Notes: generated from the letters alone by a model not told the origin. DNA of 64,000 bases from Verrucomicrobiota bacterium (GCA_947471985.1 CANIZL010000009.1:21810-85809), one strand, 5' to 3'. Counted from the first letter of the stretch, positions 31,334 through 49,430 are shown. Program-made: numbers and translations.

Positions 31334-34300
31334 TCAGCCCTTGGTGATGGTTTCGTCGAGGTTCAGCAGGGCGCGGGCGAGAGTGATCCACGCGGCCCAC
31401 TCGGCGGCCCGATCGGAGTTCTCGCCGGTGAGGGTTTTGGAATTGAGTTCACCGCTCGCGACCCGTTGCTGTTGTGCCTGGAAAAAGCGCGTTAGGGCGG
31501 CGGTTTCCTCCTCGGTTGGTGGACGCGAGGTGCAACGGCGGAACCCGTAGCGCACCCGTTCTTCCACGGTTCCCTCCCGGGTCATCAGCAGGCGGCCCAG
31601 GGCGCGGGAGGCGTCCACGAGCAACACATCGTTCAGCAGGGTGAGCGCCTGCATGGGCGTGTTGGAGACATCACGGCGGGCAATACAGGCTTCGCCGCTC
31701 GGAGCGTCGAAGGTGTTGAACAGGGCGAAGGGGGCGCTGCGTTTCATGAAGGTGTAAACGCTGCGCCGATAGCGATCCTCACCGGAGCTGGCGGGCCACG
31801 ACGCGCCGCCGTACGCCGCCTCGGTGACGCCGGAAGGTTGTGGCGGATAGACGCTTGGGCCGCCCATTTTCGAGGAAAGCAATCCGCTGGCCTGCAGCAC
31901 ACTGTCGCGGATCGCCTCGGCATCAAGGCGGGACCGGGGACCGCGGGAGAGCAGTCGGTTTTCGGAGTCGCGGGCGAGCCGATCCGGTGTGGTGCGGGAG
32001 GCTTGTTGGTACGTCGCGCTCAGAACCATTAGGCGATGCAGTTTTTTCAGAGACCAACCCTGGTTCATGAATTCCACGGCCAGCCAATCGAGCAATTCCG
32101 GGTGCGAAGGCGCTTCGCCCTGCAGTCCGAAATCATCCGTGGTGCGCACCAGGCCGCGGCCGAACAGGGCCTGCCATTGCCGATTTACGGTGACGCGGGC
32201 GGTGAGGGGATTGCTGCGCGACACCAGCCAGCGGGCGAGTCCGAGGCGATTGCGGGGCAGGTCGGGAGTAAACTCGGCCACCGCTGCGAAGGCGCCGGGC
32301 GTAACAACTTCGACGGGTTGCAGATATTCGCCCCGGTTATGTCGATGGGTCAGCCGGGGGTTCTCCGGCGGGCGTTCCCGCAGGACCATCGTCGTGGGAT
32401 ACGGGGCGGGACGACGGAGCTTTTGAATTTCGGCCGCGGCGGTCGCCAATTCGGGAAGCTGCAGCAGACACTGTTCGCGCAAGGCCTGTCGCTGACGGGG
32501 GGTGAGTTGGGCATCGGGCACGGCCAGCAGGGCTTCGATATCCTCGGGGAGATCCAGGGCCTGCGCACCGCCGGGGCGGGTGGTGACGGAAATGCGGAAG
32601 CGTCCCAAGGAACACGCGTAGTGTCGGCCGAAGAAAAGCTTCAGCTGCCACGGAGCGATTTGGGCGGTGGGCTCGGCGAGATTGAACACGGCCGAATGGC
32701 GTTCGCCTTCGCGACCCGCCGTCGACCAACCGGTCTGTGGATCGCCATCGACGGCGAGGGAGGCGCTGGCGTTGCTGCCGAAGTTGTTCTTGGCGTAACT
32801 GTGCGTCGCGCTGGCAAATTTAACCGGTCGATCACCGGCGGTGAGTTGGAATTCGCCGAGGAAGAAATCGCCCTTGGGACCTTCGTAGTACGCCAGACCG
32901 GGACCGTGCCGGGGCAGCCGTTCGTCCGGCAGGGCTTCCAGTCGGACGGCCGTAATGCCTGTGATTTCGGGCGCAAACGACAGGTCGTAGGTATCGCTCT
33001 TGGTGATATCGCCGCTGGCCAGGACCGAGGCGTCGGGTTGCGGCGTCAGCAGGGGCGAGTTCGACGTGGCCTTGCCGGGGCGCAGGGGAATCCAGGTCGC
33101 GGCGCGGGAACGCATTTCCGTGAGCCAATCAGCGAAGCGCTTTTCCACGGCTTCGGTTCGGCGAGCGGCGAGCGAGCGGCCGCCCCCGTCCGGCGTGCCA
33201 AAACTGACGCGGGGACGACCCACGAGGTGGTGACTGCCAAAAGGCTGTTCCAACCGGATGACCCAGCGGGTGCCGCCGGGAAAGCCCACCGGCTGCGCCA
33301 GCGTCAGGGTAGCCTGGTGCGGGGTGTTGAGGCGGCCTTCCCCGACATCGACCGCCCAACCGGTTTCCGGATGGCCATCGATCAAGTTGGACGCCGGAAA
33401 ATCCTTTTGCTCCACGTCGGCCCGGACACTGGCCACCTTCACCGGTTGCACCTGGTCGGGAGTGGAGCGGGGAGCGGCGGTGATCACGATTTCTCCCAAG
33501 ACGAAGTTGCCGTGCGCCACCCGGCCGGGACCGTGTTTTGGCAGGGCATCGTCGGTCAGGGTTTCCAGACGGAGCGAGTCGATGCCGGTGGCCTCGGTGT
33601 CGATCACGAGAGTGTACACATCGCGCTCGGGCGCGGGCTGATCGAAAAGTACCGATCCGTCTGTCAAAATCCGTCCCCGTTCGCCGCTCGCTGCCTCGGC
33701 GGAAATCGGCGGGGGCGTGTGCCAGAGGATATTCGTAATCGGAAAGCGCTGCGGTAACTCCGCCAGCAGACGATCGGCCTCGAGGAGGTTCCTGGCCTGA
33801 CGGGCCGCGGCACCGGGCGGGGGCAGATCGAGGTCGGGCTCTTCGGCATTGTTGAGCAAGGCCATGAGCTGGTAGTACTCGCGGTGCAGCAGCGGATCGT
33901 ACTTGTGGGTGTGACATTGAACGCAGCCCACGGTCAGGCCCAGCCAGGTGGTTCCGGTGGTGTTGACGCGATCAATGGTGGCGAGGAAGCGGAACTCCAA
34001 CGGATCAATGCCGCCCTCCTCGTTGAGCATCGTATTGCGATGGAACCCGGTGGCGATGCGTTGGTTCAACGTGGGTTCCGGCAATAAATCGCCCGCCAGC
34101 TGTTCCACGGTGAATTGATCGAAGGGCAGGTCGGCATTGATCGCGTTGATGACCCAATCGCGCCAGGGCCAGATGGTCCGCTGACGGTCCTTCTCATAGC
34201 CATTGGTGTCGGCGTAGCGGGCGAGATCCATCCAACGACGTCCCCAGCGTTCACCGTAATGCGGTGATTGCAGCAAGCCGTCGACGAGTTTTTCGTAGGC

Positions 34301-34912
34301 ATCCTTGGCGGTGTCTTGAACGAAGGCGTCCGCCTCTTCGGGCGTGGGGGGCAATCCGATGAGGTCGAGATAAACGCGGCGCACCAGGGAGTGTCGACTG
34401 GCGGGTTCCGATGTTGCCAGACCCTCGGCTTCGAGGCGGGCGAGGACGAAGTGGTCGACGGGATTGTGGGGCCAGTCCTTGGCTTTGACGGCGGGCAGTG
34501 GTGCCTGGCGGGGCGGGACGAAGGCCCAGTGGGGACGGTATTCGGCTCCGTCGGTGATCCATTGCTGGAGGGTTTCCTTTTCGGCGGCACTGAGTTGGGA
34601 CTTGGTACTCGGCGGCGGCATGACCTCGTCGGGATCCGCGCTGAGGATCCGTTTAACGAGTTCGCTTTTAGGGGCTTGTCCCGGAACCAGTGCGATGGCC
34701 CCTGATTTTGCGGGTCGCAGGGCGTCCTCTCGTTGGTCCAGGCGCAACTGGCTCTTGCGTTTGGCGTCGTCGGGCCCGTGGCATTTGAAGCAATGGCGGG
34801 CCAGGATGGGGCGCACCTCACGGGTGAAGTCGGGTGGGCTCGCGGCGGATAAAGCCGCATGGAAGGTGCTGGTGAGAAGCACTCCCAATAATCCCAGACG
34901 TGGCCGAATCAT
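31334..34912 (-). CDS. PSCyt1-DUF1549-DUF1553 (PSD1) planctomycete cytochrome c protein with two inserted beta-sandwich modules
   Basis: CFKCHG, PHYGERWGRRWMDLARYADT, CVQCHTHKYDP, PSHPELLDWLAVEF, RLDAEAIRD, TPMQALTLLN. Start placed at ATG 34912. Confidence 0.92.
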   Translation of the reverse strand: MIRPRLGLLGVLLTSTFHAALSAASPPDFTREVRPILARHCFKCHGPDDAKRKSQLRLDQREDALRPAKSGAIALVPGQAPKSELVKRILSADPDEVMPPPSTKSQLSAAEKETLQQWITDGAEYRPHWAFVPPRQAPLPAVKAKDWPHNPVDHFVLARLEAEGLATSEPASRHSLVRRVYLDLIGLPPTPEEADAFVQDTAKDAYEKLVDGLLQSPHYGERWGRRWMDLARYADTNGYEKDRQRTIWPWRDWVINAINADLPFDQFTVEQLAGDLLPEPTLNQRIATGFHRNTMLNEEGGIDPLEFRFLATIDRVNTTGTTWLGLTVGCVQCHTHKYDPLLHREYYQLMALLNNAEEPDLDLPPPGAAARQARNLLEADRLLAELPQRFPITNILWHTPPPISAEAASGERGRILTDGSVLFDQPAPERDVYTLVIDTEATGIDSLRLETLTDDALPKHGPGRVAHGNFVLGEIVITAAPRSTPDQVQPVKVASVRADVEQKDFPASNLIDGHPETGWAVDVGEGRLNTPHQATLTLAQPVGFPGGTRWVIRLEQPFGSHHLVGRPRVSFGTPDGGGRSLAARRTEAVEKRFADWLTEMRSRAATWIPLRPGKATSNSPLLTPQPDASVLASGDITKSDTYDLSFAPEITGITAVRLEALPDERLPRHGPGLAYYEGPKGDFFLGEFQLTAGDRPVKFASATHSYAKNNFGSNASASLAVDGDPQTGWSTAGREGERHSAVFNLAEPTAQIAPWQLKLFFGRHYACSLGRFRISVTTRPGGAQALDLPEDIEALLAVPDAQLTPRQRQALREQCLLQLPELATAAAEIQKLRRPAPYPTTMVLRERPPENPRLTHRHNRGEYLQPVEVVTPGAFAAVAEFTPDLPRNRLGLARWLVSRSNPLTARVTVNRQWQALFGRGLVRTTDDFGLQGEAPSHPELLDWLAVEFMNQGWSLKKLHRLMVLSATYQQASRTTPDRLARDSENRLLSRGPRSRLDAEAIRDSVLQASGLLSSKMGGPSVYPPQPSGVTEAAYGGASWPASSGEDRYRRSVYTFMKRSAPFALFNTFDAPSGEACIARRDVSNTPMQALTLLNDVLLVDASRALGRLLMTREGTVEERVRYGFRRCTSRPPTEEETAALTRFFQAQQQRVASGELNSKTLTGENSDRAAEWAAWITLARALLNLDETITKG

Positions 34913-35173
34913 GCGGACAAGCTTCGCGAAGCTGACCGGAATGCGAAACTGTTTTGGCGGCGGAGGACGCAGGAATCCGGAAACTCCCCGGCCGCGGGGC
35001 GGGCAAAAAACGGGGAGCAGGTGGGGGCGGCGAAGTTGGCCCAAGTGGAGTGGTGGATGGCCGTAGCCCTCATCCGCTTTCGCGCCGGGACGGTTGGGCT
35101 GAATGATTGCCGAAATTCCCACGGCGGAGGCGTTGCTCTTCTTCGGGCGCAGAGGTTCCCGTCGGCCCTCATT

Positions 35174-36926: not shown

Positions 36927-37030
36927 CCCCAACGCTAGAATTCGGTGGCGGTTCCCGAAAGGGCATTGTCGGCGCGGCAGGCTTCGCTTTCCCTTTTCGC
37001 AGGAGGGGCGTATGGTTGGGCGCGTAAACC

Positions 37031-37540
37031 ATGAAACCCGCCGCATTATCCCTGTTGGCCGCGACTGGACTTTGGGCCGTCACCTCCACTTTGGCTCCGG
37101 CTCAGAGCATTGGCCGGATCCGGCAGTCGATCAACAACGCCACGGGCGGGGCAGCGGGAGCGCCGGTCAAGCCGCAGTATCCGACGCCGGCCGCGCCGAC
37201 GTTGACCCCGGAGCAGGCTGCCGCGGTGAAGGCGGCCCAACTCAAGCGACAGCAGGAAGCGGCCGCGGCGGCGGATGCCAAGGTCGTGCCGTTTCTGAAA
37301 GAACGGGTGGAAGGCGGCTCGGCGGATGCGGCCTGCGATCTGGCCAAACGCTATGAGACTGGCAAGGGCGTGGCGGCCGACGCCAAAGAGGCCCGCCGAC
37401 TATATCAATTGGGCGCGGATCGGGGCAGTGAGGAGGCCAAGACCTGGTTGAAAGAACATCCGGCGACGGTGGCACCGGCCGCGCCGACGAAACCCGCTCC
37501 CACCCCGGCCGCGGTATCGAAGCCGGCGGATAAGAAGTAA
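37031..37540 (+). CDS. Secreted Sel1-repeat protein
   Basis: Signal peptide; AACDLAKRYETGKGVAADAKEARRLYQLGADRG Sel1 repeat; P/A-rich tail. Confidence 0.8.
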   Translation: MKPAALSLLAATGLWAVTSTLAPAQSIGRIRQSINNATGGAAGAPVKPQYPTPAAPTLTPEQAAAVKAAQLKRQQEAAAAADAKVVPFLKERVEGGSADAACDLAKRYETGKGVAADAKEARRLYQLGADRGSEEAKTWLKEHPATVAPAAPTKPAPTPAAVSKPADKK

Positions 37541-37616
37541 TTGATGCGGCCGCGGGACGGAGCTTTTCCGCGCCGGGGATTGCTTGGGGAACGCGCTCTC
37601 GGTTCGCGTTATCGCG

Positions 37617-39350
37617 TTAAAGCGGCTTCAGCATGTGGTAGCTGTGGCACGTGGCGCAGTTGGCCGGGGCGCCGTTTTCCGTGTGACAGTCGATGCACGC
37701 CTTCAGGCCGGCATTGCGATCGGCCGCGGAAAGCATGGTGGCCGTCTGATGAGGTAGATTGATGTCAGATGTCCGGGTGCTTTGGAGCACGGTGCCATGG
37801 CACTCCAGGCAGGTGATCCGCGGCGACGGATGTTTGGCGTGATTGAAACGTCCACCCGGCAGCCAGCGGTCGGGTATCCGCGGACGGGTCACCTGCGCCT
37901 GCCCCTGCGCGTCACGGGTGACCTCATGACAATATGCGCAGCCCGCGTAATGGGCGCGTTTGCCGGTGCTGCCCTGATCCTCGGGAAACATCCGGGGGCG
38001 GGGATCGCCGGTGAATAAAATCAGGTCGAGCAATTGCTCCCCCGTGCCCAGCAGGCGGCGGACGCGGTCGGCGTTGGCGCGGGCAAAGTCATCGATGCGC
38101 GCGCGGTCCGTCTCGCCGCGGATGCGGGCGAGGTTGGCATACTGGACCTGGAGCGTGGCCAGACTGGCGACTCCCGCCCGCACGGCTGCAGGCGACGCAT
38201 GGGGGAGTTTCATCTCGGGGTTTACCGGATCGAACTGCAGGGAATGACAGGACTGGCAATGCAGGTCGAAGCGGATTCGTGCCATGTAAGCGCCGGTGGA
38301 ATCGGGCTGGTGACAATCACGACAATTGAGTCCGCGGGTCTCGTCGACGCCCGCATCCGCCATCCGGACCGTGGTGCCGAAGTGCAGTTGGTGATTGAAC
38401 TTGAGCGTATTCCCATCCTTGAGCCCGGCCACGTGGAGTCCGAAGTCCGGATGGCCATCCCAGTAGTGGGCGAATTGATTGGTCCGGCCTCCCGCCCGAC
38501 GCGGGGTGATGAAGGCGCTGAGGCCCGGGACCAGGGGGGGATGGAAATCCAGCGGGTCGTCGGTGCTCGGGCGGGTGAACCGCCGGAGGGCGGGGCCGTC
38601 GTTGTGACAACTCGCGCAGGTCTCATCACGGGGTGCGGCCAACTGGCGTCCCTGATGTTCCCGATGACAATCGGTGCAGGAATGCGCCGCTACGACCGTG
38701 GGCTGATGGCGATCGTGATCCGCGTGGCAGGCGAGGCAATTGCGCTCGTCCATTCGGCTGTGGTGATCCGTTTTGGCCAGCGCCAGTTGTTTCCAATCGA
38801 AGGGGCCGGGCCGGGCGCGGAACGCCGTTTGCAACCACTGCCCCAGTCCCCCTTCGGCGGCCTCGTGGCACCCCGCACAACCACTCGAGCCGAAGTGGGT
38901 GAGGGCGTCGTGTTGGAATCCCGGGCTGCCGTGGGGTTGGGAAACCGGGCCGGGCGAGATGAAGGCCCAGCGCCAGGGACCAGCGCACAGCAGCACGAGC
39001 AGTCCGATGGTAAACGAAATGGTGGCCAGCGTCAGCCGGCCGCGCAGGCGCCGCAGCGAGCTTTGAGGGACGCACGGGATGATGGGGCAGCCGCATTGGC
39101 CGTCGGGGCCGGGGCCGGTGGCACAAGGACCGCCCGCCTCCCGGGACCGCGTGCATTTCCAACGTCCCTTGGTTTCACCGGGGCGAACCTCGAGCAGGGG
39201 GCGGCATTCCGCGGTGGAGCGACAGTGTCCGCCCGGGCTGGGTCCCAGGCGGCAGGGTTTCCCCTCGCAGGTGCGACCGCAGACCCAGGCCTGGTTGGGT
39301 CGCTCGTATTGGGAGCGATCAAACTCGGGTGCGGGTAGGGGATCGTTCAT
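37617..39350 (-). CDS. Membrane-anchored decaheme cytochrome c with Cys-rich N-terminal domain
   Basis: Ten CxxCH motifs: CAGCH, CLACH, CTDCH, CASCH, CRDCH, CQSCH, CAYCH, CLECH, CIDCH, CATCH; cytochrome c3-like FNHxxH motifs; one TM. Start placed at ATG 39350. Confidence 0.92.
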   Translation of the reverse strand: MNDPLPAPEFDRSQYERPNQAWVCGRTCEGKPCRLGPSPGGHCRSTAECRPLLEVRPGETKGRWKCTRSREAGGPCATGPGPDGQCGCPIIPCVPQSSLRRLRGRLTLATISFTIGLLVLLCAGPWRWAFISPGPVSQPHGSPGFQHDALTHFGSSGCAGCHEAAEGGLGQWLQTAFRARPGPFDWKQLALAKTDHHSRMDERNCLACHADHDRHQPTVVAAHSCTDCHREHQGRQLAAPRDETCASCHNDGPALRRFTRPSTDDPLDFHPPLVPGLSAFITPRRAGGRTNQFAHYWDGHPDFGLHVAGLKDGNTLKFNHQLHFGTTVRMADAGVDETRGLNCRDCHQPDSTGAYMARIRFDLHCQSCHSLQFDPVNPEMKLPHASPAAVRAGVASLATLQVQYANLARIRGETDRARIDDFARANADRVRRLLGTGEQLLDLILFTGDPRPRMFPEDQGSTGKRAHYAGCAYCHEVTRDAQGQAQVTRPRIPDRWLPGGRFNHAKHPSPRITCLECHGTVLQSTRTSDINLPHQTATMLSAADRNAGLKACIDCHTENGAPANCATCHSYHMLKPL

Positions 39351-39361
39351 GGCCGGGGGAG

Positions 39362-40195
39362 TCAGCGGGTCGTGGCGCCGAGGGAAAAGCCGTGCACGAG
39401 GATCAAATGAAGACCGGTGGCGAGAAGCAGGCTGTAGGTGAGGGGAATGTGTACGAAGAGCCACCACTTGAGGCTCGATTGCAGGGCGTACTGATGATCC
39501 AGGCTGTCCTTTTGCTGAACGAGGGCACCCAGTTCATCGAGTCGCTGTTTCTGTTCCGGAGTCAAAAACCGACCCAGATCCTCCATGCGCGCGCGCAGTT
39601 GGTTCAGGGGTTGATCGCCGGCGAAAAGATGTTGCGAGAAATTGCGGGGACCGCGGAAGAAGTCGGCCAATTGGGTGCTGTAGAAGTCCGCAATGGTCGT
39701 GGTGTGACCGGTGGTGACGGATTCCAGGGCCAGGGCTTCGGCGCGATCCTGCAGGGCGCGGCGGATGAGGGGAATGCGTTCGTAAAGGACTTCGCCGCCG
39801 CGGCTCGTCAGCCGGCCGGGGACATATCGGGACCACCACAAGCCGACCACGCCGGAGCCGGCGACGATGACGAAGAGCAGGGCGAGGGTGATTTCGAAGC
39901 CCCCCTGCGGCAGGCGCCAGGAGACGTGGGCGAGAAACAGGGCCGCGGAAAAATACCCGAGATAGACGTGGAGTTGCAGCCAGAGTCGCGAGCTGCCCAA
40001 GGGAAGGAACGGCAGCTTCTTGCGCGCGTTGTACAGGGTCAGGAAAATCATGAGACCCAGCAGGGCCCAGCCGGTGAAGTAGGCGAGGTGTCGCAGGCTG
40101 GGGACGAAATGCCGCCAGACCCAAACCAGTGCGAGAATCGCGACCAGCAGGACGCCGGTCCGACTCAGGCGGCGGATCCAGAGATGCGCGCTCAT
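39362..40195 (-). CDS. Ferric-reductase-like transmembrane (putative di-heme b) protein
   Basis: Two helices each with a His pair 14 residues apart: LHVYLGYFSAALFLAH and VHIPLTYSLLLATGLH; about 5 TM with a soluble helical insert. Confidence 0.75.
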   Translation of the reverse strand: MSAHLWIRRLSRTGVLLVAILALVWVWRHFVPSLRHLAYFTGWALLGLMIFLTLYNARKKLPFLPLGSSRLWLQLHVYLGYFSAALFLAHVSWRLPQGGFEITLALLFVIVAGSGVVGLWWSRYVPGRLTSRGGEVLYERIPLIRRALQDRAEALALESVTTGHTTTIADFYSTQLADFFRGPRNFSQHLFAGDQPLNQLRARMEDLGRFLTPEQKQRLDELGALVQQKDSLDHQYALQSSLKWWLFVHIPLTYSLLLATGLHLILVHGFSLGATTR

Positions 40196-40222
40196 GCGAT
40201 CCTGCGGAGGTGGTTCATGAGT

Positions 40223-41947
40223 TCAGGGGTTAATCCACCGAGCAAAGCGGTCGAGGCTGGTCATGTCGATGCGCCGGAGCGCGTCGTGCGGGCAGGCGCG
40301 TTCGCAGGCCGGGCCGCCGTATTGCTCCAGGCACAGATCGCATTTGGTGGCCTTCAAGATCGGTTTGAGGGATTCGTCGGTGACAAAAGCCCCCTTGGCA
40401 TTGCGCACTTCCACCATGCGGATGGCCTCGTAGGGGCATTGATTGGAACAGGTGGAGCAGCCGATGCAGGTGGCCTGGTTGATCACCACGTTGCCGCGGC
40501 GGGAATCCCGGTGGATGGCGCCGGTGGGGCAACCGATCATGCAGACGGGATCCACGCAGTGCATACAGGCCTGGGCGATCTGGATGCGGCCGCTGCTGGG
40601 ACCGTGGCGGAGAAACCGGGGATTGTTGCCGTGCGTGGCGGCGCAGGCGCGTACGCAGTCGTCGCAGCGGGTGCATCGATCGAGATCGATGGCCATCGTT
40701 GCCGTACCGTTGAAGATCCGGTTGGCGGTGAGGAACTCCATCATTTCGGGCCCGATGCCCGGCTGCTGGGCGCCCAGGTCCAACGAAGGATCCTCATCGT
40801 CCTCGGCCAATTCCTCGGCGGTGAAGGCTGCGGGGCGCAGGGCAGGGGGCAGACCCGGCAGCACCAGTTCTTCCAGGACTTCGCGAGGAACGAACAAGGT
40901 GTGGGTGTAACCCAAGGCGCGGAGCGTGCCCTGATAAAGTAGGAGCGGAGTCTCCGTCCCGCGTCGCAGCCAATTGTGCAGGACCTCCCGCAGGCCGAAG
41001 ATTTGCCCGGCGCCCAAATAGTTCAGGGTGCGTTGTCCGGCGCCGAAGGAACGTGTAAGGCGGGCGAAGCCGGAGCGCACGATGAAGAGGCCCGCCGCCG
41101 CGGTGTTCTGTCCCGCGATGAGCTGCTCAATCTCCGGGTTTAATGTCCCTTTCTGGGCCAATTTCTTGTATTCGCCCGACCAGCCGTAGGAGCCAAAGGT
41201 GCCGAACTCGACCCGGCTCTTCAGGACTTCGTGCTGGGCTTCGCTGAGATGCTGAAAGAGCGGGATGGCGCGCAGGGCGCTGGAGAGTACGTTTTTGCGA
41301 TAGAGGTCGTCGATGCGGTGCTGGAATTTCTGATCGGCGAGGAGGGCCTTGAGTCCCTGCCACCGTACTTCCAGCAATTCCACCTCGCCCGACTCAGCGA
41401 AGATGGAGGCGGTCCGGGGCATGCGGGAGAGGGCGGCGATTTCGCCGAAGAATTCCCCTTCACCAAGGGTGGCCGTCTTGTGCTGCGAAAGGATGCGGGG
41501 CACGTCCTGGAGGAACACCCGGACTTCGCCGGCTTCGGAGATGGTGCTGCCGACGATGGGGGCGAGCGCGGCGGGTTTGCGGACCTCGGGTTCGGCGGAA
41601 GAGGACCAGAGCTGAGCGATGACGCGCCAGATCGATCGTTGGCGCGCCTCTCGTCGGCCCAGCATGCTTTCCGGGAGACCCGGTTGGAGCACCACGCGCA
41701 CGGAACCGCTGAGCACCAAAAATGCGGAGGACCCGTAGTCGCCGGAACGCACCACAATTTCCCCACTACGGAAACGGCGCACGCGACAGTGGTTCTGCAG
41801 GATTCGCCGAAGTTGGTCGGCGGGCAGCGACATATCCTTGAAGGGAGCAACAGCCAGCAGGCGCTCGGCGTCGGCGTCGGCAAACGCCGGATCAAACGCG
41901 GCGTCCTCCTCGCTTAATCGAGCAATTCGCAGATGCGTGGTTTCCAT
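40223..41947 (-). CDS. Tandem cyclic-nucleotide-binding domain protein fused to a 4x[4Fe-4S] (DmsB/NrfC-type) ferredoxin
   Basis: PBC FGEIAALSRMPRTAS; second degenerate CNB; CTRCDDCVRAC, CMHCVDPVCMIGCP, CIGCSTCSNQCP, CDLC..GPACERACP. Confidence 0.9.
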   Translation of the reverse strand: METTHLRIARLSEEDAAFDPAFADADAERLLAVAPFKDMSLPADQLRRILQNHCRVRRFRSGEIVVRSGDYGSSAFLVLSGSVRVVLQPGLPESMLGRREARQRSIWRVIAQLWSSSAEPEVRKPAALAPIVGSTISEAGEVRVFLQDVPRILSQHKTATLGEGEFFGEIAALSRMPRTASIFAESGEVELLEVRWQGLKALLADQKFQHRIDDLYRKNVLSSALRAIPLFQHLSEAQHEVLKSRVEFGTFGSYGWSGEYKKLAQKGTLNPEIEQLIAGQNTAAAGLFIVRSGFARLTRSFGAGQRTLNYLGAGQIFGLREVLHNWLRRGTETPLLLYQGTLRALGYTHTLFVPREVLEELVLPGLPPALRPAAFTAEELAEDDEDPSLDLGAQQPGIGPEMMEFLTANRIFNGTATMAIDLDRCTRCDDCVRACAATHGNNPRFLRHGPSSGRIQIAQACMHCVDPVCMIGCPTGAIHRDSRRGNVVINQATCIGCSTCSNQCPYEAIRMVEVRNAKGAFVTDESLKPILKATKCDLCLEQYGGPACERACPHDALRRIDMTSLDRFARWINP

Positions 41948-41965
41948 GAAGAATGTCGCGGGGGA

Positions 41966-43270
41966 TCAGGCATCCAGGGTCACATTCCCCACGGGGCAGC
42001 CGACGCAAGTCAGGCAGGAGCCCGCTTCGACGCTGAATCCCGGGGCGTCCTTGTAAACGACTTCGCCGACGCGGACTGCCACGGCGCACGAGCCACAGCT
42101 GCCGGCGCCGCAGCCGTAATCGATCCGCACCTGTTGGGCGGCGGCGAGTTCGTAGAGGTTGCTGACGGAACCGTCCCAGACTGCGGTCTTGCCCGACTTG
42201 GCGAAGGTCACGGTAGCCCGGGCGGTTTCCGGTGCGGCGGTGGTGGCCGGCTTGGCCTGGCTGACGCGTTTGACGCTGGCGGGGCCGAACGCCTCGAAGT
42301 GGATGCGCTCGTCGGGGACACCCCACGCGATGAGTCCCTCGTACATGTCCTTCATGAACGGACCGGAGCCGCACATGAGGAAACTGTAATTATTCGACGG
42401 CAACAGCTCCTTGAGCAGATCCGGGGTCAGGCGGCCCTCGCGGTCGTAGTGCCGGCCCCGGATTTCCTGGGGACCGGGACGGGAATAGCAGACCACGACG
42501 TGGAGGTTCTCCAGCGGCCGCAAACGTTCGATGTCGGCCCGCAGGATGTGTTCCTCACCATTGCGGCAGACGAAGAAAAACCAGGCCTCCCGCTTGGATC
42601 CACTGGCGGCGATGGCATTGGCCATGGTCAGGACGGGGGTGATGCCGACGCCGGCGCCCATCAGGACCACCGGCGTGGTCTGGGCGAGGTCGAGGTAGAA
42701 GTGCCCGCTGGGCGCCTTGACGTTGAGCAGATCGCCGACCTGGGCTTTCTGGGTGAGAAACGAGGAACCGACGCCCGGCGGGATGCCGGGTTTGTCTTTG
42801 GGGGACTTTTCCCACTTAATGGTGAGCCGGTAGTAGTCCTTGACCGCATCGCAGTCGGACAAGGAGTAGCACTTCACCACCTGCTTGGTGCGCCCGGGAA
42901 TGTCGAGGCCGAGCGTCAGGTACTGTCCGGGCTTGAACCCCGGGAGCGGTTTGCCGTCGTGCGGCTTGAGGTACAGGGAGTAAACCCCATCGCATTCGAA
43001 GACCTTCTGATCGACCCGGAATTTGCGATAGCCGTTCCAGGTGGCCTTGCCGGCCTCGGCCTGCTGCAGTTCGGCTTTGGCGGCGCGGACCAGGTGATGG
43101 AGCCGCTCCTGCTCGAGGGTCAACTGGCGGCTGCGGGCGAAGAAGCGCCGGACGGCACTGGCGACGGCCAGACCCGTCTGGATGGCCACCCCGGCGAGAA
43201 TGGCCCAACCGATAAACAATCCCGGATTGCTTCGGAGCCCCTCCGAATTCAAAAAGATAAGGGGTTGCAT
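41966..43270 (-). CDS. N-terminally anchored FAD/NAD(P)H oxidoreductase with C-terminal [2Fe-2S] ferredoxin (FNR/PDR-like)
   Basis: TM IGWAILAGVAIQTGLAVA; FKPGQY, CYSLS, GVGS, GAGVGITP, MCGSGPFM, FEAFG; CGAGSCGSC...C. Start placed at ATG 43270. Confidence 0.92.
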   Translation of the reverse strand: MQPLIFLNSEGLRSNPGLFIGWAILAGVAIQTGLAVASAVRRFFARSRQLTLEQERLHHLVRAAKAELQQAEAGKATWNGYRKFRVDQKVFECDGVYSLYLKPHDGKPLPGFKPGQYLTLGLDIPGRTKQVVKCYSLSDCDAVKDYYRLTIKWEKSPKDKPGIPPGVGSSFLTQKAQVGDLLNVKAPSGHFYLDLAQTTPVVLMGAGVGITPVLTMANAIAASGSKREAWFFFVCRNGEEHILRADIERLRPLENLHVVVCYSRPGPQEIRGRHYDREGRLTPDLLKELLPSNNYSFLMCGSGPFMKDMYEGLIAWGVPDERIHFEAFGPASVKRVSQAKPATTAAPETARATVTFAKSGKTAVWDGSVSNLYELAAAQQVRIDYGCGAGSCGSCAVAVRVGEVVYKDAPGFSVEAGSCLTCVGCPVGNVTLDA

Positions 43271-43332
43271 AATGCGCCGCACTTTGTGTATCCAAGAATG
43301 GTGCGGCTTGTAAACCGCATTGCACATAAACC

Positions 43333-44472
43333 GTGATGATCTTTTTTAACCGGCTTTTTCGGGGAATATTTTTGTCGATCCTGGCCGTGACGGCCACGGC
43401 GGGAGAATCGCCGCTGGCGCGGTTTGTGGGCACCCCGGCCTGTGCTTCGTCGTCCTGTCACGGTGGGGCGGGGCCGCAGCGGAATCAGGTGGGCCGGTGG
43501 GAGTCGCTGGATGTCCATCGGCGGGCGGCCAGTACGCTGCAGGTGGCTCGTTCAGAACAGATTGCCCGGGGATTGGGACTTACCAATTCGCTGGGGCAAT
43601 CGACCGCCGCCCAAAGCCCGCGTTGCACCGTCTGCCACGCCCCCAATGCCCTGGTACCGGCCGCGGCGCGTCGGGTGGAACTGGACGCGACCGAAGGGGT
43701 GGCCTGCGAAACGTGTCACGCTCCGGCGGAACCTTGGTTGCGCAGTCACACGCGCCCCGGTCCGCCGCGGGATGATTTTACCCGGGCGGACAAGGTGGCG
43801 GCCGGGATGCGCGATCTGCGGGATTTGCGGGTCCGAGCCAATGTTTGTGTGGCGTGCCACGAGAATGTGCCGCGCGAGTTGCTGGCGGCGGGACATCCGG
43901 AATTGCTGTTTGAACTGGATGGACAAACCCGGCAGGAGCCCCGGCATTGGGTGGAGCGCGCCGGTCCGCCGGCGGGGTATCAAGGCGCGCAGGCCTGGTT
44001 GGTGGGGCAGGCGGTGGCGTGGCGGGAAGTGGCGTGGCAGTCGAAGGATCCCGCTGAAACCTCCGAGCGCTTGGTCGCCCGGGAGGCGGGATTGGCATGG
44101 CTCGTGAGGCGGGCCGCCCAGTCGGTGGGCGTCACTGATGGCACGCCCGATGCCGTGGCCCGGGCCGTCGCGACGCGGGTTTGGACGACGGCCGATACCG
44201 CCACGGTGCTGCGGGTATTGGCGGGTTCGTCGGAGGATTTTCGGACGCCGGCGACGCCGGTGGCGGTGCAGGCCCGGCGCGCGGAACGCCTCGTTCTGGC
44301 GCTGGATCGGCTCCTGGCGGCCAGCCCGGCGGCCACCGCTCAGGCGGCCGATGAGGCGTTGAGTTCGTTGTTTCAACTCGCTCAATGGTTGCCGGATTTC
44401 GCCCCGGCCCGTTTTGCGGCGGCCCTGGAGGTCCTGTCCGGGAAGCTCCCCGTTTCTCCCCCGGTCCCGTAA
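43333..44472 (+). CDS. Secreted cytochrome c554-like multiheme protein (4 heme motifs)
   Basis: Signal peptide; FVG..ACASSSCH (CX4CH), CTVCH, EGVACETCH, CVACH, AAGHP; helical C-terminal half. Confidence 0.85.
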   Translation: MMIFFNRLFRGIFLSILAVTATAGESPLARFVGTPACASSSCHGGAGPQRNQVGRWESLDVHRRAASTLQVARSEQIARGLGLTNSLGQSTAAQSPRCTVCHAPNALVPAAARRVELDATEGVACETCHAPAEPWLRSHTRPGPPRDDFTRADKVAAGMRDLRDLRVRANVCVACHENVPRELLAAGHPELLFELDGQTRQEPRHWVERAGPPAGYQGAQAWLVGQAVAWREVAWQSKDPAETSERLVAREAGLAWLVRRAAQSVGVTDGTPDAVARAVATRVWTTADTATVLRVLAGSSEDFRTPATPVAVQARRAERLVLALDRLLAASPAATAQAADEALSSLFQLAQWLPDFAPARFAAALEVLSGKLPVSPPVP

Positions 44473-44550
44473 GTCGTCCCAGGGTGGCAACTTCCGCCGA
44501 ATTATTTTTGAACTGCGACATACAAAAGCCGGTCGGGTGGTGTCGTATTC

Positions 44551-45201
44551 ATGAGTGGAAGGGCTTTCAGCGTGAACCATCAATCCCTCAAGGATGACGT
44601 TACGGATGCCGCCCCGGGTCGTTTCCCGGAGGGCGCACTGGCGGCGTTGTACGATGCCTCGGCGGAAAAGCTGGTGCTGTACGGCCGGGCGCTGGGCCTG
44701 GGACACAGTGAGGCAGAGGATGTGTTGCACGACGTTTTTGCCGCCCTGCTCAAGTTGACGGCGGTGCCGGATGAACCGGATCACTACGTGGTCCGGGCGT
44801 TTCGGAACCGGGTCTTCAATTACCGCCGGGGCTGGTGGCGTCGACTGCAACGCGAATTCGAGGCCACCCGTTGGTTTGAACCGACGGAACCCGTGTCTCC
44901 GCAGGAGGCTGCCGCGGTGGCCTGTCTCCGCGGACTGCCGATGGAACAGCGGGAGGTGATTGTCTTGAAGGTCTGGCATGGCCACACGTTTGAGCAGATT
45001 GCCCGGCTGCAAGAGGCCTCGCCCAACACCGTCGCGGGTCGCTATCGCTACGGCCTCCAAAAACTTCGTTCCTGTCTGGCCCGAGACTCTTTCGCTGACT
45101 CTGAAACTACTACTGACGATGAAACCGACTTCCGATCCGGAATTGCTGCTGAACCACTTGAGTGCGTTGCCGCTGCGGTCGCCTGCCGCGGGCATTCGTA
45201 G
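44551..45201 (+). CDS. ECF-type RNA polymerase sigma factor
   Basis: Region 2 (EAEDVLHDVF, RAFRNR) and region 4 (LPMEQREVIVLKVWHGHTFEQIA..NTVAGRYRYGLQKLR). Confidence 0.92.
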   Translation: MSGRAFSVNHQSLKDDVTDAAPGRFPEGALAALYDASAEKLVLYGRALGLGHSEAEDVLHDVFAALLKLTAVPDEPDHYVVRAFRNRVFNYRRGWWRRLQREFEATRWFEPTEPVSPQEAAAVACLRGLPMEQREVIVLKVWHGHTFEQIARLQEASPNTVAGRYRYGLQKLRSCLARDSFADSETTTDDETDFRSGIAAEPLECVAAAVACRGHS

Positions 45202-45502
45202 GCGGCTGTTTGGCCCCCGATTGGGAGAGGCCGCGGTTCGCCGGCGGGAGGTGGATCCTTCCCCGGTGGGGCTGGCGGCTTGGCTGATGCCGGTGGGGGC
45301 GGCGGCCGTGGCCCTGCTGGGGTGGGTGGGGACCCCCGGTTTTCCGCTCCGGGCGGTGGCGGGGGAGACCAATGCGGCGCTGCGGGTGGATTTCGCCGGA
45401 TTCCCCGCCAGCAGCGTGAATTGCGTCCCCGCGGGATGGCTGACCTCGACATTGTCCAACGCCGCCCCGTCGACTAACGTTTCGGTTCATGGTTGGAACT
45501 GA
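45119..45502 (+). CDS. Probable single-pass anti-sigma factor
   Basis: Overlaps the sigma 3' end; short cytoplasmic helix (ELLLNHLSALPLRSP..IRRRLF), one TM, short periplasmic tail. Confidence 0.6.
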   Translation: MKPTSDPELLLNHLSALPLRSPAAGIRRRLFGPRLGEAAVRRREVDPSPVGLAAWLMPVGAAAVALLGWVGTPGFPLRAVAGETNAALRVDFAGFPASSVNCVPAGWLTSTLSNAAPSTNVSVHGWN

Positions 45503-45638: not shown

Positions 45639-48600
45639 ATGGATAGTTCCAAGTCTGTCTCTTCCAGCACCGTTGCGGCTGCCGCACCGCCCAAACCGTC
45701 GGCCAAGCCGGTCGTGCCTCCCCCACTTGGTACCGCCTTGGCGGCGCGGGGGCGATTGTACCGGCCGATCGACTGGCTGGTTTTCGCCTTGGTCACCTTG
45801 TTCGTGCTGTGTGGTTACCTCTACACGATCGCGCCGGACCTGACCCTGGAGGATTCCGGTGAGTTGGCGGTGGGATCGATGTACGCGGCCGTGCCGCATC
45901 CGCCCGGATATCCGGTGTGGACGGTGTACAGTTGGCTCTTCACCAAGCTGCTGCCGTTTTCCAATATCGCATGGCGGGTGTCCGTTTCCTCGGCGGTGGC
46001 GGCGGCGCTGGCAGCCGGCTTGGTGGGGTTGCTGATTTCGCGGGGAGCGAGCTTGATTCTCGAAGGCCTCGACTTCGGCCGGGAACTCGATCTGGGTGCG
46101 CAGCGTTTGATCAGTATTACCTGCGGTTTCGTCGGCGGAGCATTGCTGGGCTACAACGGCTATATCTGGTCCCAGGGCGTCATCGTTGAGGTTTACACGC
46201 TGGCCGTGCTGAACCTGATGGGCGTGCTGGCGGCCTTGATGCGTTATATGTGGGCCCCGCACCAGCGTTGGTGGCTCCTGCTCGCCTGGTTCCTTTTCGG
46301 CCTCTGCTTCTGCAATCACCAGACCCTGATCGTGGGCGCCATGGGCATTGAGGTTCTGGTGCTGATGGCCGACAAAAAGGTGGGTCGCGACCTGTTCCTG
46401 GGTAACACGATCATCTGGATCCTGATGTTGATCCTGCACTTTGCCGACAAGGTCGGCACGTTCCGGGACAACCCGGCTATTTTCTTCATCTTCAACCTCG
46501 TTGGGGTGGGATCTGCGATCACCGCCGTGGCCTACTCGGTGATGACCGGATCGGCGTTCACCCGATTCCATTGGGTGATTTTCTCGGGGTTCTGCTTTGG
46601 CATCGGGGCACTGTTTTATTTCTACATGCCGATCACCTCGGCCACGAATCCGCCGATGAACTGGGGGTATCCGCGGACTTGGGAGGGATTTGTGCATGCC
46701 TTCACCCGCGGGCAGTACGAGAAAACCACGCCCTCCACCAATCCGCTGATGTTTTTCCAGCAGGTCTGGATGTATCTCGAGGGCTGTCAGGAGGAGTTCA
46801 ACTGGTCCATGTTGCTGGTGGCGCTCGTGCCGTTCTTCTTCTTGAAAGCCATGCGCCCGCGGGAGCGGGGATGGATCATCGGTCTGACGGCGATTTACGT
46901 CTGTCTGGCGTTCCTCCTCCTGTATCTGCTGAACCCGCAAGTGGACAAGCAATCGCGGGAACTGGTGAAAGTGTTCTTCACCACTTCACACGTCTGCATC
47001 GCCCTTTGCGTCGGTTACGGCCTGGCCATTGTCTGCGCCCTGCTGCTCACCCGCTTCCAGCAGTATCGGCTTCCCATCGTCATTGGCGCCGGGGTGGCGC
47101 TCTTCTTCAATATTTACGACGTGATGGAAACGTGGCGGACCAGCCTGTTTCTCATCAACCGGATGGCGGCCGGACTGTCGCTGCTGATGGTCCTCGCCTT
47201 TCTGGCGATCGTCTTCCTGGGGATTTTTCGCCGCCGCAGCCAGGTGGCGTCGCTGGCGCTGTTTGTGCCGCTGTTTTTGGGGATTCCGCTCGACTCGATT
47301 TTGTCGCACTGGTCGGACAACGAGCAACGCGGGCATCTCTTCGGCTTTTGGTTTGGTCACGACATGTTTGAGCCCGGCCGCGACGCCGGGGCGCCGGCGC
47401 CCAAGGGCAAGAATGGCCAGCCGCTGTATGAGCCCATGACCCAGCACTCGGTGCTTTACGGCGGCACGGATCCGGGCCGGTTTTGCCCGACGTACATGGT
47501 ATTTGCCGAATCCTTCACTCCGCCGCAGCATCGCCGGGATCCGGGATTTGACCGCCGCGATGTTTACGTGATCACCCAGAACGCGCTCGCGGATAACACC
47601 TACCTGGATTACATCCGCGCGCACTACAATCGGAGTGCCCAGAACGATCCGATGTTCTTTTACTCCATGCTGAACGATACGCGTTCGGCAGCGCGGGGGA
47701 AGACCAACGCCCTGGCGAGCCTGATGGCGCCGGTGGACAATTTGGTTTGGAATTATGGCCTGGCGGTGGAGGCGGAACGCCGGGCGGGGGAATCCCTGTT
47801 TCGGGCCGATTCCTTCAAGGATTTTGCGGGTTTTCGCACCCGGGTGACGGCGGCGGCGGAGCCATTGAGCGCGTACTTGAAGGGACGTCTGGGGGCCGCG
47901 GTGAGCGGCGAGGCCCCGGCGATGGCCAAGGCGCTGAACGCCCTGCTGGAGGGGCCTTCACTTTTTGATGACCCGAAGCGCTTTGCCGGCGTGAAGTTGA
48001 GTGAGCATGTGCAGCTCTTCGCCGTGCAGAATCCGGCCACCGCCAATCGCATTCGACTCAATCGAATGCTTCTGGAGGAGGCCTATCCGGGGATGATCGT
48101 CACCAGTCCGGGCGGCCTTTACCCGGATCGGGAGATTTTGATCGCCACGCCTGAGGATGCGCGGCGCTGTTTTGAGGATTACACGATGGATGCCCAACGG
48201 CGTTATTCCCTGAATCAACTGCGTCCCGGAGAGGTGCTCAATCAGATGCCGGATGGCCGGGTGTCGGTTTCCGGTCAGACCGCGGTCATGCAGATCAACG
48301 GCCTGATCACCAAGGTCATGTTCGACAAGAATCCGAGTCACGACTTCTACGTGGAAGAATCGTTCCCGCTGGACTGGATGTACCCGCACCTCACTCCGTA
48401 CGGGATCATCATGAAGATCGAACGATCGCCCGTGGCTCAGCTCAGCGATGAGCAGGTCAACCGGGATCACGAATACTGGAGCCAGTACAGCGCCCGGTTC
48501 ATCGGTAATTGGATTACCTACGATACCCCGGTTTCGGAGGTGTGCTCGTTCGCCACGAACGTGTATCAACTGCGTAACCAGGACGTGATCGCGAAGTACG

Positions 48601-49430
48601 GGGCGGATCCCAAATTCGTCCGCGACGACAATGCGCAGAAGGCCTTCAGCAAGCTGCGCAATGCGATCGGCAAATCGATCTACTACTGGCGCGGTGCCGT
48701 CAGCCCCGCCGCCAACTCGCCCAAGATGATCAAGGAGGCGGATTTCGCGATGAAGCAGGCGTTCGCGTTCTGTCCGTACAGTCCGGAGACGGTGTTCAAC
48801 TACGCCTCGCTGCTGGCCTCGACGGGCCGGTACGCCGATGCACTCATGGTGGTGGAGGCGTGTTCCTCCTTCGATCCCAACAATGGCGGCATTGCCGATC
48901 TGCTGCGGCAACTGCGGTCCTTGGCGGGCAATCCCGCCGCCGCCATGCGCGGAGCTCCGGCTCCGGCGGCTACGGGCGCGGCTGTGGACGCCCCTCCGGC
49001 CTCGCCGGCGGAGATTGCCGAGATTGCCTCCAACCTGACCAACGCCTTCACCACGGCGAGTCTTTGGCTGCAAAGCGGTCGCTCCAACGAAGCCCTACAG
49101 TTGCTGGATGCGGTGTTGGCGGCTCCCCAGGCGGACACACGCGCGATCCTGTCCGTCGCCACCGCGTATCAGCAGTTGCTGCGTTTCGACAAGATGGAGC
49201 CCGCACTACTGCGGTATGTCGAACTTTCCCCGGTATTGCCCGAGGCGTGGTATGACCTCGCCGCCATTCAGGCCCTGCAGGGTAAGAGCGCCCCGGCGCA
49301 AACGTCGCTGAGTAAGGCGGTCACGCTGAGTGATGCCCGGCGGAAAATTTCTCCGACGGCCAAGGATCTTCGGGCCGAATGGGAAAAGGACGCCCGCTTC
49401 GACGCCATTCGCACCAAGTTGAAGCTGTAG
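45639..49430 (+). CDS. DUF2723 / TMEM260-like GT-C glycosyltransferase with C-terminal TPR-like region
   Basis: APDLTLEDSGEL..VPHPPGYP, EVYTL, NHQT, PPMNWG, GGTDPGRF, RRDVYVITQNALAD; about 13 TM; helical repeats at the C-terminus. Confidence 0.85.
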   Translation: MDSSKSVSSSTVAAAAPPKPSAKPVVPPPLGTALAARGRLYRPIDWLVFALVTLFVLCGYLYTIAPDLTLEDSGELAVGSMYAAVPHPPGYPVWTVYSWLFTKLLPFSNIAWRVSVSSAVAAALAAGLVGLLISRGASLILEGLDFGRELDLGAQRLISITCGFVGGALLGYNGYIWSQGVIVEVYTLAVLNLMGVLAALMRYMWAPHQRWWLLLAWFLFGLCFCNHQTLIVGAMGIEVLVLMADKKVGRDLFLGNTIIWILMLILHFADKVGTFRDNPAIFFIFNLVGVGSAITAVAYSVMTGSAFTRFHWVIFSGFCFGIGALFYFYMPITSATNPPMNWGYPRTWEGFVHAFTRGQYEKTTPSTNPLMFFQQVWMYLEGCQEEFNWSMLLVALVPFFFLKAMRPRERGWIIGLTAIYVCLAFLLLYLLNPQVDKQSRELVKVFFTTSHVCIALCVGYGLAIVCALLLTRFQQYRLPIVIGAGVALFFNIYDVMETWRTSLFLINRMAAGLSLLMVLAFLAIVFLGIFRRRSQVASLALFVPLFLGIPLDSILSHWSDNEQRGHLFGFWFGHDMFEPGRDAGAPAPKGKNGQPLYEPMTQHSVLYGGTDPGRFCPTYMVFAESFTPPQHRRDPGFDRRDVYVITQNALADNTYLDYIRAHYNRSAQNDPMFFYSMLNDTRSAARGKTNALASLMAPVDNLVWNYGLAVEAERRAGESLFRADSFKDFAGFRTRVTAAAEPLSAYLKGRLGAAVSGEAPAMAKALNALLEGPSLFDDPKRFAGVKLSEHVQLFAVQNPATANRIRLNRMLLEEAYPGMIVTSPGGLYPDREILIATPEDARRCFEDYTMDAQRRYSLNQLRPGEVLNQMPDGRVSVSGQTAVMQINGLITKVMFDKNPSHDFYVEESFPLDWMYPHLTPYGIIMKIERSPVAQLSDEQVNRDHEYWSQYSARFIGNWITYDTPVSEVCSFATNVYQLRNQDVIAKYGADPKFVRDDNAQKAFSKLRNAIGKSIYYWRGAVSPAANSPKMIKEADFAMKQAFAFCPYSPETVFNYASLLASTGRYADALMVVEACSSFDPNNGGIADLLRQLRSLAGNPAAAMRGAPAPAATGAAVDAPPASPAEIAEIASNLTNAFTTASLWLQSGRSNEALQLLDAVLAAPQADTRAILSVATAYQQLLRFDKMEPALLRYVELSPVLPEAWYDLAAIQALQGKSAPAQTSLSKAVTLSDARRKISPTAKDLRAEWEKDARFDAIRTKLKL

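Follow-up and report, generated by a model that had tools for sequence, protein, structure and literature searches.

A five-gene redox cluster of a freshwater verrucomicrobium as a candidate cyclic-nucleotide-controlled electron exporter of the Ptd/PCC4 type

Introduction

Outside the Shewanella and Geobacter models, it is still an open question how bacteria pass electrons out of the cytoplasmic membrane; in the Verrucomicrobia, this inner-membrane step has been drawn as unknown (He et al., 2017, mSphere, PMC5615132). The question is raised here by a cluster of five genes (A to E) at positions 37617-44472 of a 64,000-nt stretch of DNA from a Verrucomicrobiota bacterium (hereafter, the window). 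Could these genes encode a route for electrons from the cytoplasm to the periplasm and, if so, what would control it?

The reading favoured here, with a probability of roughly 0.55, is that the cluster encodes an exporter of electrons from NAD(P)H to the periplasm under the control of cyclic nucleotide monophosphates (cNMPs), i.e., the inner-membrane and periplasmic half of an envelope system of the Ptd/PCC4 type. The gene set is not new: the cluster is a freshwater verrucomicrobial member of an already described family, with a different outer-membrane partner.

Organization of the Cluster

The cluster comprises the following features:

41966..43270, minus strand: gene A (PtdC-like), FNR-family flavoprotein, from open reading frame (ORF), profile and motif analysis
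40223..41947, minus strand: gene B (PtdE-like), cytoplasmic protein with two cyclic-nucleotide-binding (CNB) domains and a four-cluster ferredoxin, from profiles, motifs and homologues
39362..40195, minus strand: gene C (PtdF-like, like the PCC4 inner-membrane protein), protein with five transmembrane (TM) helices, predicted dihaem b cytochrome
37617..39350, minus strand: gene D (PtdG-like), Cys-rich N-terminus, one TM helix and decahaem domain
43333..44472, plus strand: gene E (PtdD-like), secreted c554-like tetrahaem cytochrome with a helical C-terminal part
43271..43332, no strand: divergent spacer between A and E (62 nt), presumed shared control region

Genes A, B, C and D share the minus strand and are separated by only 18, 27 and 11 nt, respectively. 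An earlier model-generated description of the window (hereafter, the sequence-only reading) had given the same five ORFs, gaps and divergent spacer, together with a full set of cofactor motifs; ORF analysis returned the former as claimed, and motif counts located every one of the latter. The frame of A is open to 43327 and homologue alignments begin at the Met at 43270; the 62-nt distance to E is measured from this homologue-supported start. A promoter and terminator scan of 37000-45300 gave nothing exceeding the shuffled expectation, and no consensus promoter was found in 43271..43332.

Proteins and Cofactors

Within the proteins, five shorter features carry much of the argument:

40268..40690, minus strand: four-cluster ferredoxin domain of B, 16 conserved Cys
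41408..41452, minus strand: phosphate-binding cassette of the CNB-A domain of B, FFGEIAALSRMPRTA, with Gly, Glu and Arg kept
39926..39982, minus strand: TM3 motif of C, W72-x3-H76-x13-H90, invariant
39407..39463, minus strand: TM5 motif of C, W245-x3-H249-x13-H263, invariant
39066..39287, minus strand: cytoplasmic N-terminus of D, a domain with two four-Cys repeats, all of these Cys invariant

The flavoprotein A matches FAD_binding_6 (PF00970), NAD_binding_1 (PF00175) and Fer2 (PF00111) in Pfam/NCBIfam, and strongly resembles the reductase part of flavohaemoprotein, Hmp (E 2e-69). Its single N-terminal TM helix is followed by the FAD and NAD(P)H domains and by a C-terminal plant-type [2Fe-2S] domain with the ligand pattern CX4CX2C...C (C406, C411, C414 and C444). 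By the positive-inside rule, the catalytic part is predicted to face the cytoplasm.

Protein B combines a sensor-like and a redox part. It matches cNMP_binding (PF00027) over three stretches (E 6e-25) and PF13247 (E 2e-09), and its ferredoxin part is of the HydN/HycB/DmsB type, with four clusters (Pfam/NCBIfam). The cluster ligands are conserved in homologues: (i) Cys 425/428/431/435; (ii) 461/464/469/473; (iii) 494/497/500/504; and (iv) 536/539/548/552. No export signal is present in the sequence of B which, judged in this way, is a cytoplasmic protein. Its nearest solved relatives are CNB domains of the PKG/PKA type and HycB-type ferredoxins. The Gly-Glu...Arg cassette of CNB-A is conserved in 41/41 B homologues, and this domain probably binds cyclic AMP (cAMP) or cyclic GMP (cGMP) made by sensor cyclases. 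B is present once in the genome, which encodes four class III cyclases.

The membrane protein C has nothing in Pfam at E < 0.01. Its confident AlphaFold2 model (predicted local distance difference test, pLDDT, 88.6) shows five long TM helices with a cytoplasmic domain, itself helical, of about 120 residues inserted between TM4 and TM5. Both WX3HX13H motifs, including H76, H90, H249 and H263, are invariant in 34 homologues, as is S114-G115-x-x-G118 (SGXXG). Following the positive-inside rule, H76/H249 would lie near the cytoplasmic face and H90/H263 near the periplasmic face, with the insert in the cytoplasm. C is predicted to be a dihaem b cytochrome with two bis-His haems, one near each face. 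Single-sequence profile scans of the C family gave weak matches to DUF4405 (29/34 members) and Ni_hydr_CYTB (17/34), both of which belong to the dihaem cytochrome-b clan; Ferric_reduct (PF01794) was matched by only 2/34, with E ~0.05 or worse. A search for a fold relative among solved cytochromes b (Foldseek against the PDB) yielded meaningless helical-bundle matches, the best with E 0.17.

A single natural B-C fusion was seen in P0350 (843 aa, metagenomic), in which two CNB domains and the ferredoxin are joined to the membrane protein. It could instead be a frameshift or gene-calling artefact, because the B and C genes frequently overlap by 4 nt in relatives.

Proteins D and E match multihaem cytochrome families, with Cytochrome_C554 as the match of E (Pfam/NCBIfam). 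In D, a 10-Cys N-terminus and one TM helix precede 10 CXXCH motifs, a number kept in 75/75 homologues, and the homologue alignment holds exactly 10 further invariant His as distal ligands. E has a signal-like N-terminus, three CXXCH plus one CX4CH (CASSSCH), and a helical C-terminal part of about 190 residues; 50/51 members of its family have three CXXCH and one CX3-4CH, with exactly four invariant distal His. Since the invariant distal His equal the haem motifs in number (10 + 10 in D, 4 + 4 in E), both proteins look like pure bis-His carriers and not enzymes, with no open catalytic haem. The haems of D and E must be periplasmic. Sequence searches of the two against PDB chains gave marginal or no matches.

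The Cys-rich N-terminus of D (C24, C33, C43 and C49 in the first repeat; C66, C76, C86 and C93 in the second) is probably an accessory interaction or regulatory domain. An obligatory redox centre is unlikely at this place, since other lineages replace or lose the domain: the homologue from Sphingobium has an FHA/YscD-like domain instead, and the shorter D-like protein of a verrucomicrobial variant (L091), which aligns only from D residue 109, appears to be devoid of it. In two further divergent variants, L092 (genome G141) and L093 (G144), the decahaem protein is much longer (874 and 726 aa, respectively), still with 10 CXXCH.

Proposed Route from NAD(P)H to the Periplasm

Put together, these features suggest the following route. 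A would oxidise cytoplasmic NAD(P)H through FAD and then its [2Fe-2S] cluster; B would relay the electrons over four [4Fe-4S] clusters; C would take them across the membrane on two bis-His b haems; D, anchored by its single helix, would lead them into a ten-haem periplasmic chain; and the soluble tetrahaem E would hand them onward. The downstream partner would be a module, which in this genome lies on contig C74, made of an HbpS-like protein, an AlgE-like 18-strand barrel and a decahaem LVIVD protein. Binding of cAMP or cGMP to CNB-A would open or close this route, which drains NAD(P)H without energy conservation.

Electrons that move from NAD(P)H (-320 mV) to c haems run down the redox gradient and, as they cross from the N to the P side, down the membrane voltage as well. 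Outward flow is favoured because the route is downhill chemically and electrically, while the reverse one would find no coupling device in the cluster. Furthermore, a drain that conserves no energy would explain why a switch is worth having.

The sequence-only reading had likewise proposed a wire with a built-in cNMP sensor, running in either direction. Topology, bis-His carriers, the CNB-A cassette and cyclase neighbours fit it. The genes, their motifs, the conservation of ligands, synteny, co-occurrence and homology to a Sphingobium system are shown; the formation of a complex, the outward direction, independence from quinones, cNMP binding and gating, and the final acceptor are inferred.

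Conservation and Distribution

A scan of GTDB species representatives gave, for the verrucomicrobial clade alone, 345 loci that encode a relative of C. The best 80 of these 345 come almost all from metagenome-assembled genomes (MAGs) of Verrucomicrobiota (Limisphaerales/Pedosphaera and some Opitutae). Adding the eight phyla named in a preprint on the ptd operon (see below), the family is widespread and not rare; within the phylum, its distribution is patchy (C is present in 6/201 sampled genomes). More than 1000 database relatives exist for each of B and C, generically named only. The source organism itself is a lake-water MAG, as found by looking up the gene in DNA sequencing runs.

Synteny was counted among 50 related loci with enough flank. 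The whole arrangement, i.e., all five genes in the order E<-|->A-B-C-D, is kept in 48/50, which is far beyond chance. Neither of the two exceptions contains runs of N, so that each reflects a real rearrangement or a join made in assembly: in L021, an insertion of about 1.1 kb separates A from B and E is missing, and L030 has C and D with no E, A or B upstream. B-C-D is the invariant core, because three divergent variants keep only these genes.

The Sphingobium herbicidovorans MH Locus

A tblastn search against plasmids found a homologous system on megaplasmid pMSHV (NZ_CP020539.1) of the cultured bacterium Sphingobium herbicidovorans MH, in a locus annotated with generic names only. Its genes form two groups that lie close together and are given here in gene order: (i) a c554-like cytochrome, an HbpS-like protein, a barrel and an LVIVD decahaem protein; and (ii) an 825-aa flavoprotein fusion, a C homologue, a D homologue and a metallophosphoesterase. 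In the first group, the c554-like cytochrome shares 37% identity with E (E 7e-31), as well as its CX4CH motif; the barrel and the LVIVD decahaem protein are 38% (E 3e-105) and 44% identical to their counterparts, respectively. In the second, the C and D homologues are 28% (E 5e-13) and 26% (E 2e-19) identical.

The 825-aa fusion is a Pyr_redox flavoprotein joined to two CNB domains and a four-cluster ferredoxin (36% identical to that of B, E 1e-29), whereas A is a separate protein of the FNR type. A non-homologous flavoprotein fused to the ferredoxin is independent support for NAD(P)H input. The metallophosphoesterase has as its best NCBIfam matches the cyclic-nucleotide phosphodiesterases SpdA and CpdA, below their cut-offs. 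The presence of this gene after D sets the Sphingobium locus apart from the cluster studied here, as does the N-terminus of D (FHA/YscD-like there, Cys-rich here). Nine genes travel together in two phyla, and genes for cNMP turnover accompany the core in both.

Probable Outer-Membrane and Signalling Partners

Clustering of flanking ORFs covered 58 loci and gave two recurrent neighbourhoods. The first contains a secreted tandem HbpS-like protein, the commonest neighbour (24/58 loci), an outer-membrane protein of about 740 aa (18) and a decahaem LVIVD protein of about 1400 aa (15). This outer-membrane module adjoins the cluster in about 20/58 loci, i.e., about a third. The second consists of a small barrel-like protein (13), a FecR-domain protein (16) and a CHASE2 class III cyclase, the last within 7 kb of the cluster in 18/58 loci; a divergent variant in another family has a CHASE2 cyclase again, two genes away. 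The association with nucleotide cyclases, for which the sequence-only reading had asked one to look, is thus borne out.

In one genome (G099), A-B-C-D-barrel-decahaem lie on one strand, with the D and barrel genes overlapping by 4 nt, and E and the HbpS-like gene lie on the opposite strand, the latter after the E homologue. In the genome under study, the module is found elsewhere:

contig C74:6287-16750 (locus L095): outer module of this genome

The genes there encode, in order, an ECF sigma (extracytoplasmic function sigma factor), a secreted HbpS-like protein of 592 aa (minus strand), an outer-membrane protein of 868 aa whose N-terminal third is Pro-rich and whose barrel is AlgE-like, a 1365-aa LVIVD decahaem protein and a 423-aa NHL-repeat protein. 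This module is likely the outer partner of the window cluster. The barrel gene occurs in 4/201 sampled genomes, and all four are among the six that carry C. When mapped on the B tree, outer-membrane adjacency is scattered, with 10 changes.

The C-terminal 539 residues of the barrel protein model as about 18 long strands (pLDDT 66.7), and the model is closest to the alginate porin AlgE (Foldseek E 6.6e-16), followed by Occ/OprD channels. According to this model, the protein is an outer-membrane barrel, not an MtrB-like sheath. MtrB is a 26-strand sheath, and the possibility of an Mtr-like sheath was ruled out by the ~18 strands. A sequence search with the decahaem LVIVD protein matched no solved structure, cytochrome c552 included. 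The AlgE-like barrel is absent from the genomes of L092 (G141) and L093 (G144), in which the extension of the decahaem protein might replace the outer module.

A three-gene sensor module was observed 0-7 kb downstream of D in L038, L042, L048, L050, L060, L061, L074, L076, L078, L090 and other loci. It is composed of a small barrel-like protein of about 340 aa with an aromatic C-terminal residue, one or two secreted FecR-domain proteins and a divergent CHASE2 class III cyclase, an arrangement reminiscent of that of NsrA and a CHASE2 cyclase in Sinorhizobium.

A wider proposal, tentative and doubtful as a whole, would extend the favoured reading to a nine-gene, envelope-spanning, quinone-independent exporter, switched by cAMP or cGMP that a CHASE2 cyclase makes and the Fe-S subunit binds. 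Its redox chain would start at NAD(P)H, comprise FAD, five Fe-S clusters, two b haems and 14 c haems, and lead to the HbpS-like protein, the barrel and the decahaem beta-propeller; the CHASE2 cyclase, partnered by FecR-like and small barrel proteins, would sense the periplasm and supply the cAMP or cGMP.

Relation to Described Systems

The closest descriptions are those of two related gene sets. The ptdABCDEFG operon was found bioinformatically, and its function "remains completely unknown"; its products are (i) PtdA, pentahaem; (ii) PtdB, porin; (iii) PtdC, FAD/NAD(P) oxidoreductase; (iv) PtdD, periplasmic tetrahaem; (v) PtdE, with CNB and 4Fe-4S domains; (vi) PtdF, a ferric-reductase-like membrane protein; and (vii) PtdG, decahaem (bioRxiv 10.1101/2023.11.21.568154). 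It has been reported in marine Alpha- and Gammaproteobacteria, Nitrospinota/Nitrospirales, Planctomycetota, Acidobacteriota and Gemmatimonadota, and Table S7 of the same preprint lists 20 carriers from eight phyla, among them one Verrucomicrobiales MAG and several cultured species (bioRxiv 10.1101/2023.11.21.568154). In PCC4, 4-, 5- and 10-haem periplasmic cytochromes are accompanied by a five-TM inner-membrane protein, whose gene lies downstream of that for a PF13247 Fe-S protein, and by a redox gene next to the tetrahaem one; the membrane protein, with the signature SGXXG on TM4 and WX3HX13H on TM3 and TM5, was likened to NOX/FRD, and CNB domains were not discussed (He et al., 2017, Front Microbiol 8:1584, PMC5566968). 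The organisms in which PCC4 was reported are Zetaproteobacteria and Hyphomicrobium from environments where iron and manganese are oxidised (PMC5566968).

The window cluster shares several traits with them: C exactly matches the PCC4 membrane signature, a CNB + PF13247 protein is encoded just upstream of it, and decahaem and tetrahaem cytochromes and an FAD/NAD(P) oxidoreductase are present. In a comparison of published descriptions, not of sequences, the counterparts are PtdC for A, PtdD for E, PtdE for B, PtdF for C and PtdG for D. The differences from ptd are nevertheless several: no pentahaem PtdA or porin PtdB adjoins the cluster; the tetrahaem gene is divergent instead of in line; the carriers here are freshwater and soil Verrucomicrobiota instead of saline-habitat bacteria; the outer module consists of the HbpS-like protein, the AlgE-like barrel and the LVIVD decahaem protein and not of PtdAB; and four cluster motifs are counted in B, whereas PtdE is given two. 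Likewise, the pentahaem and porin of PCC4 were not found next to the cluster. No counterpart of PtdA, which the preprint relates to cytochrome c552 (bioRxiv 10.1101/2023.11.21.568154), or of PtdB was found in the window or in 58 related loci. The five-CXXCH ORFs of this genome, in a visual and non-rigorous comparison, look like long planctomycete-type cytochromes and not like PtdA.

Among better-known systems, NOX/ferric reductases and Fre-MsrQ pass electrons in the same manner, from an NAD(P)H flavoprotein across the membrane to two b haems, each with bis-His ligation by the His pairs of TM3 and TM5. In the cluster, however, the proteins are separate, five iron-sulfur clusters stand between flavin and haem, and a multihaem chain takes the place of O2, Fe(III) or MsrP as acceptor. 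Membership of NOX/FRD (PF01794) was rejected: there is no significant match, C has five and not six helices, and gene B lies between the flavoprotein and C. Tmc, Hmc and DsrMKJOP of sulfate reducers share the combination of periplasmic multihaem c cytochrome, membrane cytochrome b and cytoplasmic Fe-S protein, but they have HdrD-like CCG Fe-S subunits, NarI-type b cytochromes and often NrfD, and neither flavoprotein nor CNB domain; the profile searches gave no more than a weak local match to HmcA (E 0.0012). An Mtr/Pcc conduit, defined by a sheathing porin of 20-26 strands, was discarded, for the window has no porin and the associated barrel has about 18 strands; Nrf, Dms and alternative complex III (ACIII) were discarded as well, for the five genes have no matches to NrfD-like or catalytic molybdo or haem subunits and all their haems are six-coordinate by His count. 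Published verrucomicrobial porin-cytochrome clusters (PMC5615132; bioRxiv 10.64898/2026.05.27.727921) are other outer-membrane clusters, not this inner-membrane module.

The sequence-only reading had stated that the cluster fits none of Mtr/Pcc, Nrf, Dms and ACIII, and the absence of a porin from the window and of NrfD-like or catalytic subunits from the profile matches of the five genes agrees with this. Its two broader statements need qualification. That no system has this composition holds for characterised systems, but the gene set had already been described as PCC4 and ptdC-G. That there is no porin holds for the window but not beyond, where the barrel and decahaem module co-occurs with the cluster, next to it in many relatives and on C74 in this genome.

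Weighing the Alternatives

Several points weigh against a cNMP-controlled outward exporter. No functional experiment has been published for any family member, neither the PCC4 nor the ptd paper having tested function, and the gene was found in none of the RNA sequencing runs. The three divergent variants with B-C-D alone have no adjacent flavoprotein gene. Within the outer module, a barrel of about 18 strands is, on the model, too narrow to sheathe a decahaem cytochrome, so that the crossing of the outer membrane would be left unexplained. As for the switch, cyclase adjacency maps on the B tree as four changes, essentially one clade plus one outlier; this genome has no clear orthologue of the neighbour-type CHASE2 cyclase, and none adjoins the cluster; and the second CNB domain of B has a degenerate cassette. 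The last two points also speak for a rival account, somewhat unlikely in our judgement, in which the CNB domains bind another ligand or are only structural and the system is not gated by a second messenger; many domains of the CRP/FNR superfamily bind ligands other than cyclic nucleotides. Against this account, the Gly-Glu...Arg cassette of CNB-A is kept in all 41 homologues; moreover, the closest solved relatives of these CNB domains are true cNMP binders, and a cyclase (Verrucomicrobiota) and a phosphodiesterase-like gene (Sphingobium) adjoin the core in two phyla.

The direction and purpose of the route can be read in other ways too. He et al. (2017) had electrons pass from an extracellular donor to the quinone pool, as several carriers are Fe(II) oxidisers (PMC5566968), which also counts against export. 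An uptake system, in which Fe(II), Mn(II) or reduced humics outside the cell or in the periplasm donate electrons that E, D and C pass inward to the quinone pool or the cytoplasm, would suit the iron- and manganese-oxidising settings of PCC4 carriers (PMC5566968), and bis-His carrier haems work either way. It is improbable here: reduction of NAD(P)+ from c haems is steeply uphill, with P-to-N transfer running against the membrane potential as well; profile searches of the five genes found no coupling subunit (NrfD-like, Rieske or proton pump); two unrelated NAD(P)H flavoproteins are tied to the ferredoxin in different lineages, which is best fitted by NAD(P)H as the donor; and the verrucomicrobial carriers are MAGs of lake and soil heterotrophs. 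Quinones might enter in another manner, as C might react with quinones in the way that the related cytochromes FdnI and NarI do, a further point against a direct wire. C would then resemble FdnI, NarI and CybH, and the system would be an NAD(P)H:quinone and/or quinol:cytochrome c oxidoreductase, as its weak matches to Ni_hydr_CYTB and DUF4405, a B ferredoxin of the FdnH/NarH/HybA/HycB type that partners such cytochromes, and the quinone reactivity suggested by He et al. (PMC5566968) would allow. Such coupling seems hardly probable when no quinone-site motif was identified in C, no solved cytochrome b is a significant structural match (Foldseek best E 0.17), and the conserved cytoplasmic helical domain and decahaem partner suffice for a direct wire. 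There is finally the option, quite improbable, of a supply of reductant to the periplasm for repair, detoxification or iron/haem handling (for instance, via the HbpS-like protein), similar to Fre-MsrQ or DsbD and unrelated to respiration or extracellular electron transfer. The NOX/MsrQ-like architecture agrees with it, as do the HbpS-like protein in 24/58 loci, placed after the E homologue in G099 and Sphingobium, and a barrel of the AlgE/Occ channel type and not the Mtr sheath type; but 14 carrier haems plus a further beta-propeller decahaem protein are a large investment for repair, and no repair enzyme (MsrP, peroxidase) is conserved nearby in the 58 loci.

Other Genes of the Window

An ECF-type sigma factor gene (Sigma70_r4_2; 44551-45201, plus strand) starts 79 nt downstream of E, and is not conserved among related loci; an ORF that overlaps it (44978-45502, plus strand) could encode an anti-sigma factor. 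On the other side of the cluster, a 1262-aa ORF (31334-35122, minus strand), which carries a CFKCHGPD motif close to the N-terminus, resembles, as read from the sequence, planctomycete-type cytochrome/DUF1553-class proteins. In a 1263-aa ORF (45639-49430, plus strand), numerous hydrophobic segments in the N-terminal half are followed by a long C-terminal half that is soluble.

Significance

Three aspects are new with respect to the published descriptions: (i) the linkage of cyclase and phosphodiesterase-like genes to the core in two phyla; (ii) a conserved outer-membrane partner module distinct from PtdAB; and (iii) Sphingobium herbicidovorans MH as a cultured carrier, in addition to the several listed in the preprint, in which the system is genetically testable. 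The family may work without quinones, and a putative second-messenger sensor is built into the wire. If the wider nine-gene proposal is true, this would be the first allosteric control of an electron-transfer chain by cyclic nucleotides and a new way to start extracellular electron transfer.

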